A stretch of 64,000 bases of DNA. It comes from Escherichia phage vB_EcoM_ESCO47. Within the stretch, counting starts at the first letter, position 1; every line of letters starts with the position of its first letter. Where the stretch lies: sequence record OM386662.1; one strand, written 5' to 3'. The translations under genes were made by a program, and so were the position numbers. Below are positions 5,615 to 61,084 of the stretch, in pieces. The notes below the pieces were generated by a model. That model did not search any database. It was given only the letters and a program-made list of their open reading frames with translations, and had not been told where the DNA came from.

Positions 5615-5619
5615 ATGTG

Positions 5620-5638
5620 GGGACCTTCGGGTCCCTTT
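5620..5638 (+). terminator. Rho-independent terminator with TTCG tetraloop
   Basis: GGGACC-TTCG-GGTCCC followed by TTT. Confidence 0.6.
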
Positions 5639-11081: not shown

Positions 11082-11130
11082 ACCGTGGTATTCGGCTCGA
11101 TGGGAGACTGTCGAGCCGGACGTCGAAACA

Positions 11131-11160: not shown

Positions 11161-11200
11161 GAACCTTCAATAAATGAATTAATTGATATGGAGTATGGTT

Positions 11201-11614
11201 ATGAATATTTCTGAAACTCGCGGTAAATGGTTCAAGATTGTTAAAGAAGATGAAGAACTACAAGCCAAGTTTCCTGAATTAAAGAAAGGAACAATCATCA
11301 AGGTAATTGGTATTTCAACAACGGCTGACCTGTCTGGTGGCATCGTTGAAGTGATGTTGTCTACTGGCGAGAAACTTTGCATCAACGACCGTGATATTGG
11401 TTTTTGGTGTTTCTGGGAATCTGATTCAATAGATGAACTCGAAGAAATTGACCAAGTAGTTCGTGACAGTGAACTACTTGGTGAATTCGAAGGGGAACGT
11501 ATTTCTTATGCTTTAGCTAAATTAGCCGCACAAGAAAATAATGACGGCTATGAAGGTAATCTGATGCAAGCCGCAGCGGAATACATTGAATATTTAGAAA
11601 GACGTTTAAGTTAA
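11201..11614 (+). CDS. Hypothetical acidic protein
   Basis: ORF-track 11183 start is TTG; ATG at 11201 has GGAG at good spacing. Confidence 0.45.
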   Translation: MNISETRGKWFKIVKEDEELQAKFPELKKGTIIKVIGISTTADLSGGIVEVMLSTGEKLCINDRDIGFWCFWESDSIDELEEIDQVVRDSELLGEFEGERISYALAKLAAQENNDGYEGNLMQAAAEYIEYLERRLS

Positions 11615-12316: not shown

Positions 12317-14130
12317 AAATCGAAAAAGAAATTGAAGGATTAATTCATAAAACTAATAAAGATCTTTTGAACGAGAATGCTAATAAAGATTCTCGTGTTT
12401 TTCCAACTCAACGGGACCTTATGGCTGGTATTGTGTCTAAGCACATTGCCAAAAATATGGTCCCGTCTTTTATTATGAATGCGCATGAAAGCGGAATCAT
12501 TCACATGCATGATATTGATTATTCTCCTGCTCTTCCGTTTACTAATTGCTGTTTAGTCGATTTAAAGGGGATGCTTGAGAATGGATTTAAATTAGGCAAT
12601 GCTCAAATTGAAACGCCTAAATCTATTGGCGTTGCTACTGCAATTATGGCACAAATTACTGCACAAGTTGCTTCACACCAGTATGGCGGAACTACATTTG
12701 CGAATGTTGATAAAGTTCTTTCTCCTTATGTTAAACGCACATACGCTAAACATGTTGAAGATGCAGAAAAATGGCAAATACCAGACATTCTGAATTATGC
12801 TCAATCCAAAACAGAAAAAGATGTCTATGACGCATTCCAAGCTTACGAATATGAAGTGAACACGTTATTCAGTTCAAACGGACAAACTCCTTTTGTTACT
12901 ATAACATTTGGAACAGGAACTGATTGGACTGAACGAATGATTCAGAAGGCAATTCTTAAAAACCGCATTAAAGGCCTTGGTCGTGATGGAATAACTCCTA
13001 TTTTTCCTAAACTTGTTATGTTTGTTGAAGAAGGTGTTAATCTTTATAAAGATGATCCGAACTATGATATTAAACAGCTTGCTCTAGAGTGCGCAAGCAA
13101 AAGAATGTATCCTGATATTATTTCAGCTAAGAACAATAAAGCTATCACTGGCTCATCTATTCCTGTTTCTCCAATGGGTTGCCGCAGTTTCTTGAGTGTG
13201 TGGAAAGATTCAACCTGTAATGAAATTCTTGACGGACGTAATAATCTCGGTGTTGTAACACTGAATCTTCCTCGTATCGCATTGGATTCTTATATTGGAA
13301 CACAGTTCAATGAACAGAAATTTATCGAATTATTTAATGAACGAATGGATTTATGTTTTGAAGCTTTGATGTGTAGAATTAGTTCCTTAAAAGGAGTTAA
13401 AGCGACTGTTGCTCCTATTCTTTATCAAGAAGGTGCATTCGGGGTTCGTCTTAAACCTGATGACGACATAATTGAGTTATTTAAAAACGGTAGAAGTTCA
13501 GTGTCTTTGGGATACATTGGTATTCACGAATTGAATATTCTTGTTGGACGCGATATTGGGCAAGAAATTTTAACTAAAATGAATGCTCATCTTAAACAGT
13601 GGACTGAAAGAACTGGATTTGCTTTTAGTTTATATTCTACTCCTGCTGAAAACCTTTGTTATCGCTTCTGTAAACTCGATACAGAAAAATATGGAAGTGT
13701 AAAAGATGTTACCGATAAAGGTTGGTACACTAACAGTTTCCATGTTTCAGTAGAAGAAAATATTACTCCATTTGAAAAGATTTCTCGTGAAGCGCCATAT
13801 CATTTCATTGCGACAGGTGGTCACATTTCTTATGTCGAACTTCCTGATATGAAAAATAACTTAAAAGGACTTGAGGCTGTGTGGGATTATGCTGTACAAC
13901 ATTTAGATTATTTTGGTGTTAATATGCCAGTAGATAAATGTTTTACATGTGGAAGTACCCATGAAATGACTCCTACTGAAAACGGATTTGTTTGTTCAGT
14001 TTGTGGAGAAACTGATCCTAAAAAGATGAATACCATAAGAAGAACATGTGGTTATTTGGGAAATCCGAACGAACGCGGATTTAATCTAGGTAAAAATAAA
14101 GAAATCATGCATAGGGTTAAACACCAATGA
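12313..14130 (+). CDS. nrdD: Anaerobic ribonucleoside-triphosphate reductase
   Basis: 605 aa; C-terminal glycyl-radical region and CxxC...CxxC zinc ribbon; uninterrupted. Confidence 0.9.
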   Translation: MKIEKEIEGLIHKTNKDLLNENANKDSRVFPTQRDLMAGIVSKHIAKNMVPSFIMNAHESGIIHMHDIDYSPALPFTNCCLVDLKGMLENGFKLGNAQIETPKSIGVATAIMAQITAQVASHQYGGTTFANVDKVLSPYVKRTYAKHVEDAEKWQIPDILNYAQSKTEKDVYDAFQAYEYEVNTLFSSNGQTPFVTITFGTGTDWTERMIQKAILKNRIKGLGRDGITPIFPKLVMFVEEGVNLYKDDPNYDIKQLALECASKRMYPDIISAKNNKAITGSSIPVSPMGCRSFLSVWKDSTCNEILDGRNNLGVVTLNLPRIALDSYIGTQFNEQKFIELFNERMDLCFEALMCRISSLKGVKATVAPILYQEGAFGVRLKPDDDIIELFKNGRSSVSLGYIGIHELNILVGRDIGQEILTKMNAHLKQWTERTGFAFSLYSTPAENLCYRFCKLDTEKYGSVKDVTDKGWYTNSFHVSVEENITPFEKISREAPYHFIATGGHISYVELPDMKNNLKGLEAVWDYAVQHLDYFGVNMPVDKCFTCGSTHEMTPTENGFVCSVCGETDPKKMNTIRRTCGYLGNPNERGFNLGKNKEIMHRVKHQ

Positions 14131-14597
14131 ATTATGATAGATTTTATCCTTGTGATTTTGTGAATGGCCCTGGTTGCAGGGTCGTTCTTTTCGTTACAGG
14201 TTGTTTGCATAAATGCGAAGGGTGTTATAATAAATCAACATGGAATGCTAGAAATGGTATTCCATTCACTGGTGAAACACTAGAACAATTAATTGAATGT
14301 TTGAATAATGATTATATAGAAGGATTGACTATAACCGGAGGTGACCCTCTCTATCCTGATAACAGAGATGTGATTCACTCCGTGGTTCAAACTATTAAAA
14401 ATCTTTATCCAAATAAAAGCATTTGGTTGTGGACAGGATATAAGTTTGAAGATATTAAACAACTAGAAATGCTTAAATATGTTGATGTTATTATTGATGG
14501 GAAGTATGAGAAAAATCTTCCGACCAAAAAACTGTGGCGAGGATCAGATAATCAGCGACTTTGGTCAAATACCGATGGGGTGTGGAAACATGATTAA
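14127..14597 (+). CDS. nrdG: Anaerobic RNR activating enzyme (radical SAM)
   Basis: 156 aa; CDFVNGPGCRVVLFVTGCLHKCEGC radical-SAM cysteine motif. Confidence 0.85.
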   Translation: MNYDRFYPCDFVNGPGCRVVLFVTGCLHKCEGCYNKSTWNARNGIPFTGETLEQLIECLNNDYIEGLTITGGDPLYPDNRDVIHSVVQTIKNLYPNKSIWLWTGYKFEDIKQLEMLKYVDVIIDGKYEKNLPTKKLWRGSDNQRLWSNTDGVWKHD

Positions 14598-17233: not shown

Positions 17234-17308
17234 CGATTTACAAACTCTTGGGAGTAGAGTATAATACTCCCAATGGATAATAAAATTTTAATTACCGAGG
17301 AAATTGAT

Positions 17309-24674: not shown

Positions 24675-24741
24675 GCTTTACGTTTAATATGTTATGATTT
24701 GGAGGAGAAATCCTCCACTTTTTGATAATGAGGAAAATTAT

Positions 24742-26640: not shown

Positions 26641-26645
26641 AGCAA

Positions 26646-26664
26646 TGGGACTTCGGTCCCATTT
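26646..26664 (+). terminator. Rho-independent terminator with TTCG tetraloop
   Basis: TGGGAC-TTCG-GTCCCA then TTT. Confidence 0.55.
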
Positions 26665-35477: not shown

Positions 35478-36026
35478 ATGGCTAAAATTATTTTAGTAGA
35501 TGGCCCAGATAATGCTGGTAAAACAACTTTCATTAATGACATAATGGAAATTAGTGAAAGATATGTAAAGATTGATTTCCCTAAACGAACTGTAGATGGA
35601 CGCTTTGATGTTAAGTCTCGAAATGAAGTAGGCTGTTTCGAAACAATGCTAAATTATTTAGACCCTACTAAGATTTATCTGTTAGACCGTGGATATATTA
35701 GTAACTGGGTTTACGGACGTATTCGACAAGATGCGGACTCGGTTCTTGACGTTTATGAACAGGATTATGTTCGTCTTTGCCAAAACCATGATGTGTTCAC
35801 AATTATTTTAACACGTAACGAAATGACTGAAAGTTTTGAAGACGACCTTATCACGTTGTCTGCTCATGGCTTTAATTTTGTTATCTCACTTTTTGAAGAG
35901 TTTGCTGCTCATAATGGAATACAATCTTATCAGTTATTAAACCATGATGGTGCTAACAAAGTTATAGGATTTAATGTAAGTGAACGCAATGCATTGATTG
36001 CAGAAATTATCAAATGGGCTCGTTAA
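35478..36026 (+). CDS. P-loop nucleotide kinase, thymidylate-kinase-like
   Basis: Walker A ILVDGPDNAGKTT and LDRGYISNWVYG resembling the TMK DRY motif. Confidence 0.5.
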   Translation: MAKIILVDGPDNAGKTTFINDIMEISERYVKIDFPKRTVDGRFDVKSRNEVGCFETMLNYLDPTKIYLLDRGYISNWVYGRIRQDADSVLDVYEQDYVRLCQNHDVFTIILTRNEMTESFEDDLITLSAHGFNFVISLFEEFAAHNGIQSYQLLNHDGANKVIGFNVSERNALIAEIIKWAR

Positions 36027-36047
36027 GAGCCTATTTAAAGTTTAAAA

Positions 36048-36072
36048 TGCTGTATAACCTGTAGTATATAAT
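36048..36072 (+). promoter_or_regulatory. MotA-box middle promoter upstream of uvsX
   Basis: TGCTGTA then 19 nt to TATAAT. Confidence 0.45.
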
Positions 36073-36126
36073 CATCCTATCTTTTAAACGTGAGTAAAAT
36101 ATAATGACGCCTATGGAAAAAATACA

Positions 36127-37299
36127 ATGTCTGATTTAAAATCTCGTCTGATTAAAGCTTCTACTTCCAAAATGACCGCTGACTTGACTAAGTCTAAGCT
36201 CTTTAATAATCGTGATGAAGTCCCTACTCGTATTCCTATGTTGAATATTGCATTAGGTGGTGCATTGAATGCTGGTTTGCAGTCTGGTTTGACTATTTTT
36301 GCTGCCCCGTCTAAACACTTTAAAACATTGTTTGGGTTGACAATGGTTGCCGCATATATGAAGAAATACCCAGATGCGATCTGTTTGTTCTATGATTCAG
36401 AATTTGGTGCTTCAGAATCTTATTTCCGTTCAATGGGTGTTGATTTGGACCGCGTAGTTCACACTCCAATCCAATCAGTAGAACAACTTAAAGTTGATAT
36501 GACTAATCAGCTTGATGCAATCGAACGCGGTGAAAAGGTTATCATCTTTATTGACTCAATCGGTAACACAGCGTCTAAGAAAGAAACTGAAGATGCATTG
36601 AACGAAAAAGTTGTTGGTGATATGTCTCGTGCTAAGGCACTTAAATCTCTGTTCCGCATTGTGACCCCGTATCTGACTATTAAAGATATTCCGTGTGTTG
36701 CAATTAACCATACAGCAATGGAAATCGGCGGATTGTATCCTAAAGAGATTATGGGCGGCGGTACAGGTATTCTTTATTCTGCCAACACGGTATTTTTTAT
36801 CTCTAAACGTCAGGTTAAAGAAGGTACAGAATTGGCCGGTTATGACTTCACGTTGAAAGCAGAAAAATCTCGCACAGTTAAAGAGAAATCTACATTCCCG
36901 ATCACTGTTAATTTTGATGGTGGTATCGACCCATTCAGTGGCTTGTTAGAAATGGCAACTGAAATTGGTTTTGTAGTTAAGCCTAAAGCAGGTTGGTATG
37001 CTCGTGAATTCCTTGACGAAGAAACCGGTGAAATGGTTCGTGAAGAAAAATCCTGGCGAGCTAAAGCCACAGATTGCGTAGAATTCTGGGGACCTTTGTT
37101 TAAACACAAACCTTTCCGAGATGCAATTGAAACTAAATATAAACTAGGTGCTATCTCTTCTATTAAAGAAGTTGACGACGCAGTTAACGAATTAATCAAT
37201 GCTAAAACGTCTTCGAAAATTCCGGTAAAAGCTTCTGGTGCTCCATCTGCAGCTGATATCGAAAATGATTTAGACGATATGGAAGATTTTGATGAATAA
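36127..37299 (+). CDS. uvsX: RecA-like recombinase UvsX
   Basis: 390 aa; RecA-fold Walker A region; acidic C-terminus. Confidence 0.9.
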   Translation: MSDLKSRLIKASTSKMTADLTKSKLFNNRDEVPTRIPMLNIALGGALNAGLQSGLTIFAAPSKHFKTLFGLTMVAAYMKKYPDAICLFYDSEFGASESYFRSMGVDLDRVVHTPIQSVEQLKVDMTNQLDAIERGEKVIIFIDSIGNTASKKETEDALNEKVVGDMSRAKALKSLFRIVTPYLTIKDIPCVAINHTAMEIGGLYPKEIMGGGTGILYSANTVFFISKRQVKEGTELAGYDFTLKAEKSRTVKEKSTFPITVNFDGGIDPFSGLLEMATEIGFVVKPKAGWYAREFLDEETGEMVREEKSWRAKATDCVEFWGPLFKHKPFRDAIETKYKLGAISSIKEVDDAVNELINAKTSSKIPVKASGAPSAADIENDLDDMEDFDE

Positions 37300-37633
37300 T
37301 CTTGATGATTTGAATCTAGAAATCGTTGATGAATCCCCTTCTTCGGAAGGGGAGGACATTCGCAAAGAACGTGTGTTTAATGAATCTCTTAAAGTTATCC
37401 AATCGGCAATGGAGAACGTCATTCAAGAGATTCTTATTACACTTGAAGATGGTTCTCATCATATAGTCTATATTACAAAATTAGACTGGGTTGATGGAAA
37501 AATCGTAATGGACTTTGCAGTTCTTGATCAGGACAGAAAAGCAGAACTTGTGCCGCATGTTGAAAAGTGTGTTACAATGCAAGTACAACAAGCTTTTAAT
37601 GAACGAACCAAGAAAAAATTTAAATTCTTTTAA
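37289..37633 (+). CDS. 40: gp40-position protein (head-vertex assembly chaperone in T4)
   Basis: 114 aa between uvsX and 41 as in T4; positional. Confidence 0.5.
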   Translation: MMNNLDDLNLEIVDESPSSEGEDIRKERVFNESLKVIQSAMENVIQEILITLEDGSHHIVYITKLDWVDGKIVMDFAVLDQDRKAELVPHVEKCVTMQVQQAFNERTKKKFKFF

Positions 37634-37642
37634 GGAGTTATC

Positions 37643-39085
37643 GTGGTAGAAATTATTTTGTCTCATCTTGTATATGACCAGACTTATTTTTCTAAAGTCT
37701 GGCCGTATATGGATTCTGAGTATTTTGAGCGTGGACCGGCAAAAAATGTCTTTAAAATTATAAAGAACCACGTTAACGAATACAGTGCTATGCCATCTAT
37801 TAACGCATTAAAGGTGGCTTTAGATAATAGTTCTTTAACCGAAAACGAGTATAAAGGAACTTCCGATTTAATCGATAAATTGGTCGATTCTCCTGAAGAC
37901 CCTGATTGGTTGGTTAAAGAAACCGAGAAATATGTCCAGCAAAAAGCAATGTATAATGCTACGTCTAAAATCATTGAGATTCAGACTAATGCTGAACTTC
38001 CACCTGAACAACGTAATAAGAAAATGCCTGACGTAGGAGCTATTCCAGACATTATGCGTCAAGCACTTTCAATCTCATTTGATAGTTATGTCGGTCATGA
38101 CTGGATGGATGACTATGAAGCTCGTTGGTTATCTTATCAGAATAAAGCACGTAAGGTCCCGTTCAAATTAAACATTTTGAATAAAATCACTAAAGGTGGT
38201 GCTGAAACCGGTACACTGAATGTTTTAATGGCTGGTGTTAACGTCGGTAAATCTTTAGGCCTTTGTTCACTTGCTGCAGATTATCTTCAAACAGGTCATA
38301 ATGTTCTTTATATTTCCATGGAAATGGCTGAAGAAGTTTGTGCTAAGCGTATAGATGCAAACATGCTTGACGTATCACTTGATGATATCGATGATGGTAA
38401 TGTATCTTATGCTGAATATAAAGCCAAGATGGAAAAATGGCGTTCAAAATCCACATTAGGACGTTTAGTAGTTAAACAGTATCCTACCGGCGGAGCTAAT
38501 GCTAATACATTCCGTGCATTACTTAACGAATTAAAACTCAAGAAGAACTTCGTTCCTTCTGTAATCATGATTGACTACTTGGGTATTTGTGGGTCTTGTC
38601 GTATCAGAGTTTACACTGAAAATAGCTACACATTAGTTAAAGCTATCGCAGAAGAACTTCGTGCTTTAGCGGTAGAATCTGAAACTGTTCTATGGACTGC
38701 AGCTCAGGTTGGTCGAGCAGCATGGGACGCTTCTGATATGAACATGAGTGATATCGCAGAATCAGCAGGTTTACCGGCGACAGCAGACTTCATGTTAGCA
38801 GTAATTGAGACCGAAGAACTTGCTCAAGCAGAACAGCAGCTCATTAAACAAATCAAATCACGGTATGGTGATAAGAACAAATGGAATAAATTCCTGATGG
38901 GTGTACGTAAAGGCAATCAGAAGTGGGTTGAAATTGAACAAGAAGGTATGAACACCACAAACACGGTAAATGAAAACGCAGGTGCTCAGATGCGTCACGC
39001 GGAAGCGAATCGTACGGAACGCGTAGGAAAAGCTAAAGCGACTAGAGCAGATTTAGACAATCTAGCCAATGAATTAAAATTTTAA
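37643..39085 (+). CDS. 41: Replicative helicase gp41 (DnaB-like)
   Basis: 480 aa; GTG start after AGGAG; Walker A GVNVGKS. Confidence 0.9.
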   Translation: MVEIILSHLVYDQTYFSKVWPYMDSEYFERGPAKNVFKIIKNHVNEYSAMPSINALKVALDNSSLTENEYKGTSDLIDKLVDSPEDPDWLVKETEKYVQQKAMYNATSKIIEIQTNAELPPEQRNKKMPDVGAIPDIMRQALSISFDSYVGHDWMDDYEARWLSYQNKARKVPFKLNILNKITKGGAETGTLNVLMAGVNVGKSLGLCSLAADYLQTGHNVLYISMEMAEEVCAKRIDANMLDVSLDDIDDGNVSYAEYKAKMEKWRSKSTLGRLVVKQYPTGGANANTFRALLNELKLKKNFVPSVIMIDYLGICGSCRIRVYTENSYTLVKAIAEELRALAVESETVLWTAAQVGRAAWDASDMNMSDIAESAGLPATADFMLAVIETEELAQAEQQLIKQIKSRYGDKNKWNKFLMGVRKGNQKWVEIEQEGMNTTNTVNENAGAQMRHAEANRTERVGKAKATRADLDNLANELKF

Positions 39086-39090
39086 TAAAA

Positions 39091-39108
39091 AGGAGACTTC
39101 GGTCTCCT
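39091..39108 (+). terminator. Putative terminator hairpin with TTCG tetraloop
   Basis: AGGAGAC-TTCG-GTCTCCT then TTTCGGGG (weak T-run). Confidence 0.45.
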
Positions 39109-39114
39109 TTCGGG

Positions 39115-39144
39115 GTTTACACCGCTCTTAAATCATGTTACTAT
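39115..39144 (+). promoter_or_regulatory. T4-type early promoter
   Basis: GTTTAC, 18-nt spacer, TACTAT, AGACCTATCAA box, GGAG RBS. Confidence 0.55.
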
Positions 39145-39170
39145 AGACCTATCAACTACTGGAGAACAAA

Positions 39171-39488
39171 ATGAAAACTATCGATTGCAAAGCAGAGTTT
39201 AAAGTTTTTTACCATGGCTCAAGCAGTGCAGCAAACATCGAAAACATGCTTTGTCCTCCTGAAGAAACAGGTGTACTGTCTGAAACCGGACGTAAGAAAA
39301 ACCTAAATCGAGTATTCTTTACTGAAGACATTGGTTTAGCAAAGATTTATGCAGGACGAGCAGCACGATCCTATGGAGGTGAACCACGTCTTTATCGAGT
39401 AATCACTCCGGTAGACGTAGTTCAAATGAATGATACTAAAGGTGCTACGGTATATCACGCCGAATGGGCCTTCTGTGAGGAAATATGA
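39171..39488 (+). CDS. Hypothetical protein
   Basis: 105-aa ORF. Confidence 0.45.
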   Translation: MKTIDCKAEFKVFYHGSSSAANIENMLCPPEETGVLSETGRKKNLNRVFFTEDIGLAKIYAGRAARSYGGEPRLYRVITPVDVVQMNDTKGATVYHAEWAFCEEI

Positions 39489-44470: not shown

Positions 44471-44480
44471 GTTAATTATA

Positions 44481-60237: not shown

Positions 60238-60268
60238 GTTTACAGCTAAGTAGGACTATGATATAGTA
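60238..60268 (+). promoter_or_regulatory. T4-type early promoter
   Basis: GTTTAC ... TATAGTAGTCCTATC box, GGAGG RBS. Confidence 0.5.
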
Positions 60269-60293
60269 GTCCTATCTAAAGGAGGATAACATC

Positions 60294-60749: not shown

Positions 60750-60780
60750 GTTTACATCAAGGTAGGATTATGGTATAGTA
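60750..60780 (+). promoter_or_regulatory. T4-type early promoter
   Basis: GTTTAC ... TATAGTAGTCCTATCAA box. Confidence 0.5.
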
Positions 60781-60807
60781 GTCCTATCAAAATATGAGGA
60801 ACACAAA

Positions 60808-61008: not shown

Positions 61009-61084
61009 AATTGTACAAACTCCTGAGAGCAGAGTATAATGCTCTCATGGATTACAAAACATCAACTTACTTGAGGAAATTTAT

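Follow-up and report, generated by a model that had tools for sequence, protein, structure and literature searches.

In the T-even phage genome segment analysed here, a GC-rich RNA hairpin with a UUCG loop stands inside a protein-coding gene, a short distance past the end of the preceding gene, and the question that it raises is whether it acts on the gene that contains it, on the gene before it, or not at all. The segment, hereafter the window, is a stretch of 64,000 nucleotides from Escherichia phage vB_EcoM_ESCO47 (OM386662.1), a Mosigvirus-like T-even phage with about 93-94% identity to AV117, JK42 and similar phages. The hairpin parts the recombinase gene uvsX from gene 40 and the essential helicase gene 41 (Table 1), whose products are presumably needed in different amounts, and every gene identified in the window with PHROG profiles (uvsX, 40, 41, nrdD, nrdG and others) is on the + strand. 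The first-pass annotation of this DNA had offered two functions, attenuation of gene 40 translation and RNA processing or stability.

Structure and position of the hairpin

The sequence at 37335-37352 (+) is exactly as first annotated, CCCCTTC (37335-37341), TTCG (37342-37345) and GAAGGGG (37346-37352), and it is stable on folding. RNA folding assigns -11.6 kcal/mol to the 18-mer, with 94% of the ensemble in the hairpin structure, and -13.5 kcal/mol to the 20-mer 37334-37353, in which the flanking T37334 and A37353 form an eighth pair; within 161 nt of context, both the MFE and the centroid folds keep the hairpin. The GC content of the 20-mer is 60%, compared to 37% for the window. Its location just 3' of the uvsX/40 overlap was likewise borne out, as the gene 40 ATG (37292) and the uvsX stop overlap in ATGAATAA and the hairpin starts 35 nt past that stop, the stem beginning at +43 counted from the A of the ATG. 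The statement that it falls in the first 20 codons of gene 40 was correct to within one base, since it occupies codons 15-21 (S-P-S-S-E-G-E). A weak A/U-rich hairpin (-5.9 kcal/mol) is also present at 37302-37329 (+), at +11 to +38 directly 3' of the start codon of gene 40. It is built from repeated D-L-N-L-E-I codons, with a similar fold in T4. The initiating ribosome reaches this far, though not as far as the UUCG hairpin, and initiation on gene 40 could thus be influenced by it.

With its closing pair C37341-G37346 around UUCG and a stem of 7-8 Watson-Crick pairs, the uvsX/40 hairpin belongs to the extra-stable C(UUCG)G class, which Tuerk et al. are said to have described from T4 mRNA in 1988 and with which it has the loop and the closing pair in common. 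It was in T4 mRNA that UUCG tetraloops first drew attention (PMC4371310). All nine stable C(UUCG)G hairpins of the window are on the + (transcribed) strand, and T-rich, terminator-like tails follow five of them, the other four, among them the uvsX/40 hairpin and that at 39089-39110, being without. The uvsX/40 hairpin alone stands within a long ORF; the other eight lie outside long ORFs, the overlap of the hairpin at 44480 being confined to a short, unverified ORF. Perfect Watson-Crick stems of at least 6, 7 and 8 bp around TTCG were observed 9, 6 and 4 times in the window, compared to expectations of 0.16, 0.06 and 0.025 from 200 first-order Markov simulations. The uvsX/40 hairpin thus exceeds chance expectation.

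Table 1. Genes and hairpins of the uvsX-40-41 region of the window, with the corresponding hairpins of other T4-like phages (positions refer to the window; stems and loops are written 5' arm-loop-3' arm)
Feature	Position	Strand	Hairpin	Details
uvsX (RecA-like recombinase) CDS	36127..37299	+		ORF; phrog_97, E=5e-103; annotated neighbours; stop TAA 37297-37299
Gene 40 (head vertex assembly chaperone) CDS, 113 aa	37292..37633	+		phrog_999, E=3e-42
Gene 41 (replicative helicase) CDS, GTG start	37643..39085	+		phrog_19, E=3e-129
uvsX/40 RNA hairpin	37334..37353	+	UCCCCUUC-UUCG-GAAGGGGA	8 bp, cUUCGg tetraloop; 7-bp core 37335-37352
Second cUUCGg hairpin	39089..39110	+	AAAGGAGAC-UUCG-GUCUCCUUU	-12.1 kcal/mol; tail CGGGGTTTAC, without U-tract
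Gelderlandvirus, Moon-like, Erwinia COW86c			CCCCCUC-UCAG-GAGGGGG	peptide PSQEG
Klebsiella phi1_146055			AAGCUCCCCUU-GAAG-AAGGGGAGUUU	
Jiaodavirus			UCUCCCUC-GGAA-GAGGGAGA	
Winklervirus			GGAAUCCUC-UGAU-GAGGAUUCC	
Gaprivervirus DK-13			UGCGGAGGGAGC-UAAG-GCUCCUUCUGUA	peptide EGAKAPS
Dhakavirus			GAGGGUC-CUAGU-GACCCUC	peptide EEGPSDP
L046			UUCCUCCCC-UUCG-GGGGAGGAG	
Lw1 spacer hairpin			GGGGGC-UUUU-GCCCCC	
RB43-like loci, spacer hairpins			GGGGGC-GAAA-GCCCCC and AGGGGGC-AUAA-GCCCCCU	
Earwig spacer hairpin			UAUGGGGC-UUCG-GCCCCAUA	
Krischvirus spacer hairpin			AAAGGGGC-UACGU-GCCCCUUU	

Searches for terminators, promoters and processing sites

The hairpin had been likened to the intergenic terminators of the window, a comparison that holds for the UUCG loop type and fails for termination itself. 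Like intrinsic terminators, it is a GC-rich stem-loop shortly past a gene end; in contrast to them, it lacks a U-tract (its tail, GGACATTCGC, has 2 T in 10), lies in a coding region and must permit read-through to an essential gene. A scan of 35900-39400 returned no terminator-like site on either strand, and a canonical intrinsic terminator was therefore rejected. In nearly all the lineages compared below the tails are not U-rich, for hairpins within gene 40 as well as for intergenic ones, the exceptions being Krischvirus and the lineage L045. In the record of phage NR1, annotation software placed a 'terminator' at the spot of the hairpin, on the minus strand. RegB endoribonuclease cuts at a conserved, single-stranded GGAG, as a rule in a Shine-Dalgarno sequence. 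Such a site was also considered and set aside, because part of the GGAG at 37351-37354 is paired in the stem and AV117, a close relative, does not have it (GGGGAAGAC). Rfam gave no match at gathering score in the whole window, with chance-level matches only in 37200-37500.

Between the hairpin and the gene 41 start at 37643, we found no promoter-like site on the + strand: the late promoter (TATAAATA), the MotA-box pattern and a sigma-70-like site were all absent, and a promoter of gene 41's own within gene 40 was rejected on this basis. For the uvsX-40-41 region of T4, the only transcription sources named are PmuvsX and the extension of transcripts begun at early promoters farther upstream. 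As no promoter for gene 41 follows the hairpin, polymerase must read through it, and gene 41 is thus a downstream gene that depends on this read-through. On the 5' side of uvsX, a middle-promoter-like pattern lies at 36048-36072 (+), with a MotA-box-like TGCTGTA (36048-36054), 12 bp and TATAAT (36067-36072); it resembles T4 PuvsX as a pattern match only.

The T4 counterpart

T4 and NR1 carry CCCCCTC-TTCG-GAGGGGG at the identical gene 40 codons, and other Mosigviruses share the CCCCTTC-TTCG-GAAGGGG of the window. From T4 to the window, CCC becomes CCT (Pro) and GAG becomes GAA (Glu), both synonymous changes, so that a C-G pair is replaced by U-A. T4 and the window have about 75% identity over the uvsX-40-41 region, and in our alignment the hairpins of the window, AV117, T4 and NR1 match column for column. 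Judged from this alignment, the window hairpin is the orthologue of the T4 gene 40 stem-loop, its base pairing maintained in evolution. The two agree in flanking genes, codons (E-S-P-S-S-E-G-E), cUUCGg loop, 8-bp stem and lack of a U-tract. They differ by the one compensated pair, which makes the hairpin here about 2.4 kcal/mol weaker, and by genus; the mapped 3' end is that of T4, whereas the window is known from its sequence. In HX01 and one metagenomic contig, only the loop differs (UUCG to UUUG), and the encoded Ser is thereby replaced by Leu. An IMG/VR pattern scan for stem variants (GAATCCCCNTCNNNNGANGGGGA) returned T-even contigs that had already been found and unrelated hairpins, with no new variation within the clade.

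This counterpart is of interest because of earlier transcript work on T4. For their reporter leader, Kim et al. (2025, PMC12152347) took the 358 nt 5' of gene 41 of T4, and they report, citing Hinton (1989), that an RNA 3' end lies in vivo immediately 3' of a stem-loop that precedes gene 41. Among the perfect hairpins in these 358 nt of T4, only the UUCG hairpin reaches -3 kcal/mol or lower, from which we infer that it is the stem-loop meant by Kim et al. According to the same paper, infection of a rho mutant leads to more RNA ends at this site and to lower gene 41 mRNA and protein, and GoF(D25Y) restores RNA that extends into gene 41 (Hinton 1989, via PMC12152347). In T4 the site is thus one at which RNA ends build up in hosts with mutant Rho, where expression of the helicase fails, and both termination and processing have been considered as the origin of the 3' end. 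GoF was originally proposed to be an antiterminator. GoF(D25Y) is now described as acting post-transcriptionally by raising RNA half-life, its effect on reporter RNA being greatest with the full 358-nt region that contains the stem-loop; the paper further states that wild-type GoF had no strong post-transcriptional effect and that Rop, which is not an antiterminator, also suppresses the rho phenotype (PMC12152347). Our literature search found no genome-wide map of T4 RNA 3' ends.

Conservation across T4-like genera

A hairpin of -11 to -19 kcal/mol is present 30-60 nt past the uvsX stop in Mosigvirus, Tequatrovirus, Gelderlandvirus, Moon-like phages, Winklervirus, Jiaodavirus, Gaprivervirus, Dhakavirus and others (Table 1). 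Stems, loops and encoded peptides all differ: 13 different tetraloops occur among 19 lineages, and the hairpins of JS10 and Krischvirus have 5-nt loops. MAFFT matched the arms of the 19 lineages by sequence and not by structure, and an ungapped, loop-centred layout was therefore used for the table of pairs. In this structure-anchored and hence descriptive layout, the inner six stem positions are paired in 19/19 lineages, with 3-5 pair types each, and the table contains six G.U pairs and zero A.C pairs, which favours a structure in the sense RNA. The order of the peptide mirrors the order of the arms, P-S..E-G where the C-rich arm comes first and E-G..P-S where the G-rich arm comes first, the pattern that selection on the RNA, with the peptide carried along as a passenger, would produce. 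Within Dhakavirus, the variant L058 keeps the stem, and a loop change turns its peptide from PS to HY. Across T4-like genera, it is thus the structure and not the sequence that is conserved, and, with loops other than UUCG in related genera, the type of tetraloop is not the conserved feature. One modest new point is that the hairpin has been kept across Straboviridae through both compensatory and wholesale changes of the stem; such retention argues for function and against an accident of T4.

In one Moon-like contig (L013/L042, IMGVR_UViG_2974573174_000001, about L042:700-715), the C-run is one C shorter (CCCCUC-UCAG-GAGGGG), and the missing C shifts the frame of the gene 40 N-terminus. Either the homopolymer was misread in sequencing, or the contig is a natural variant that keeps the hairpin and loses the N-terminal extension.

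The N-terminal residues of gp40, about 35 in our alignment of the protein, are variable and acidic, and several genera do without them. In the latter genera uvsX and gene 40 have no overlap, and a spacer hairpin is found 1-13 nt past the uvsX stop, 5' of the gene 40 ribosome-binding site (Table 1). Because the hairpin is intergenic when the two genes do not overlap, it belongs to the 3' side of uvsX and not to gene 40. By this comparison, the conserved feature is a stable hairpin shortly after uvsX, over which the gene 40 frame of Tevenvirinae runs. We suggest, tentatively, that gp40 of Tevenvirinae gained its N-terminal extension as frame 40 was extended back over what had been the untranslated spacer 3' of uvsX, together with its hairpin, and that this hairpin fixes the uvsX:41 expression ratio in cis. 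If so, an RNA structure would dictate the N-terminal sequence of gp40 (P-S-x-E-G or E-G-x-P-S, by arm order), and host rho alleles and GoF mutants would affect T4-type replication through the hairpin. Another modest new point is that the hairpin imprints the N-terminal peptide of gp40, and this locus is a clear example of RNA structure constraining a protein-coding sequence.

Synonymous randomisation

The unbiased test of coding constraint was synonymous randomisation, in which the peptide was fixed, synonymous codons were redrawn, and an equally stable hairpin was sought anywhere from the ATG to the conserved AMxxVxQE motif. For the window, such a hairpin arose in 4/2000 versions with the codon usage of the window and in 33/2000 with uniform usage. 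The test was significant in most lineages. T4, STML-198, Kc304 and phi1_146055 gave 0/2000 each, and with L046 included the range was 0-3/2000; DK-13 and JS10 gave 17/2000. The result was weaker in Jiaodavirus, where 100/2000 synonymous versions fold equally well. In Acinetobacter T4-like phages the hairpins are only weak and the randomisation was not significant; in Kimel, whose annotation was the only one consulted among the Acinetobacter phages, a gene other than uvsX lies upstream. Codons that this phage seldom uses also occur in the stem (TCC and TCG, 6.9% and 5.2% of Ser; GGG, 6.3% of Gly). The hairpin is no by-product of the gp40 peptide.

Proposed function and alternatives

We hold, with a probability of roughly 0.6, that the hairpin permits read-through and that it both sets and shields the 3' end of RNA containing uvsX, thereby uncoupling uvsX RNA from the levels of 40-41. 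RNA polymerase would read through the hairpin into 40-41, as the lack of a U-tract and of a promoter of gene 41's own implies. The distal 40-41 RNA would be lost by decay or by Rho-linked loss, and this loss would stop at the base of the stem-loop, with the hairpin blocking 3'-5' exonucleases. The uvsX messages would thus keep a protected 3' end, and uvsX RNA would outlast or outnumber 40-41 RNA. Structure, position, conservation and the lack of terminator features come from the present analysis, while the in vivo 3' end and the effects of rho and GoF(D25Y) come from the T4 literature; from both we infer the exonuclease barrier and the effect on the expression ratio.

Intercistronic stabiliser hairpins, such as REP in malE-malF and the hairpins of the puf operon, are barriers to 3'-5' exonucleases. 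The uvsX/40 locus resembles them in having a stable stem-loop between cistrons, with no terminator tail and no promoter-like site before gene 41, and in that the stem-loop is proposed to protect the RNA of the upstream cistron while the distal part decays, giving unequal expression from one transcript. It differs from them in where the hairpin lies, within translated sequence near the 5' end of the following gene, and in that the exonuclease block by this hairpin is putative. Of the two functions first suggested, RNA processing or stability gains support, from a T4 orthologue near an in vivo 3' end (if the two stem-loops are the same), from synonymous compensatory changes and from the presence of a hairpin after uvsX in most T4-like genera, in gene 40 or outside it. 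Several points count against a 3'-end element. Ribosomes on gene 40 would have to melt the hairpin, which would weaken the barrier on translated messages, and transcripts ending there would carry a gene 40 fragment with no stop codon. The T4 stem-loop of Kim et al. is identified only through its being the sole perfect hairpin of -3 kcal/mol or lower in that region, and the Acinetobacter T4-like phages, where, in Kimel at least, the upstream gene is not uvsX, have weak hairpins.

A leaky terminator or pause site, perhaps aided by Rho or NusG, could set the ratio of uvsX to 40-41 at the level of transcription, and we regard this as rather unlikely. A GC-rich hairpin just past a gene end, the U-rich tails of Krischvirus and L045, the software call in NR1 and, within the T4 literature, the additional RNA ends in rho mutants and the former antiterminator proposal for GoF all agree with it. 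Opposed to it are the missing U-tract in the window, T4 and most lineages, and the position of an essential gene 3' of the hairpin with no promoter-like site in between, when the T4 transcription sources are PmuvsX and the upstream early promoters. The T4 literature also speaks against it through Rop, a suppressor of the rho phenotype that is no antiterminator, and through the action of GoF(D25Y) on RNA half-life.

It is improbable that the hairpin is a site for an RNA-binding protein (e.g., of the LSm-like GoF family) or a structure protecting the 5' end of a processed 40-41 mRNA. That the reporter effect of GoF(D25Y) is largest with the full T4 region would fit a protein site, but stem and loop sequences that vary across genera, with their 13 tetraloops, argue against sequence-specific recognition, and wild-type GoF had no strong effect. 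As to 5' protection, the mapping in T4 placed an RNA 3' end on the downstream side of the stem and not a 5' end on its upstream side.

We give very little credence to the attenuation of translation raised in the first-pass annotation, by which the hairpin would slow or block ribosomes early in gene 40 and keep gp40 low. A stable hairpin does occupy early codons of a gene for an assembly chaperone, which is assumed to be needed less than UvsX. The 30S initiation complex does not cover +43, however, so that the stem lies outside the initiation footprint, and elongating ribosomes unwind such stems. In the genera with a short gp40, moreover, the equivalent hairpin is 5' of gene 40 and leaves the Shine-Dalgarno sequence uncovered, its position following the uvsX stop and not the gene 40 frame. 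Least credible of all is the reading of the hairpin as an accidental palindrome, as a mere consequence of the S-P-S-S-E-G-E peptide or as an element of the DNA or antisense strand, since, even though P-S-x-E-G predisposes to self-complementary codons, Jiaodavirus folds equally well in 100/2000 synonymous versions and the NR1 terminator was annotated on the minus strand, the randomisation of the window (4/2000) and T4 (0/2000), a compensatory change synonymous on both sides, the hairpins encoded by different peptides whose order flips with arm polarity, G.U pairs possible in the sense orientation only, UUCG hairpins all on the + strand and the failure to find a terminator-like site on either strand all speak against it. 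For the 3'-end protection that we favour, natural variants are at hand with which hairpin control of differential mRNA stability can be tested.

Further hairpins in the window

The second cUUCGg hairpin of the region (Table 1) starts four bases past the gene 41 stop and probably serves as 3' hairpin to the segment that comes next in the uvsX-40-41 transcription unit. The hairpins at 5619-5636 and 26644-26663 likewise lack a U-tract and are non-terminator 3' hairpins as well. A strong hairpin of -17.5 kcal/mol, GAAUGGCCCUG-GUUG-CAGGGUCGUUC with TTTTCGTT after it, lies at 14162-14187 (+), 32 nt past the nrdD stop (14130), within the first codons of the overlapping nrdG ORF (14127-14597). Its architecture is that of the uvsX/40 hairpin, but with a T-rich tail.

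Two similar hairpins, UUGGGAGUA-GAGUAUAA-UACUCCCAA and UGAGAGCA-GAGUAUAA-UGCUCUCA, are present at 17248-17273 and 61024-61047 (+), each with a TATAAT-like sequence running from the loop into the 3' arm, and GUAGGACUAU-GAUAUA-GUAGUCCUAU occurs twice, about 500 nt apart (60250-60275 and 60761-60788, +). Both pairs look like a repeated intergenic element. At the start of a clamp-loader (gene 44-like) ORF, the hairpin UGGAGGA-GAAA-UCCUCCA (24700-24717, +; -10.7 kcal/mol) is followed by CTTTTTGA. Since the clamp-loader profile matches from residue 17, the real start may be downstream of the mechanically called one, and the hairpin may then lie in the leader and sequester GGAGGA. The two most stable perfect hairpins of the window, at 11091-11120 (-20.8 kcal/mol) and 11451-11482 (-17.3 kcal/mol), are on the + strand and have 13-bp stems, the latter lying inside the ORF at 11183-11614.
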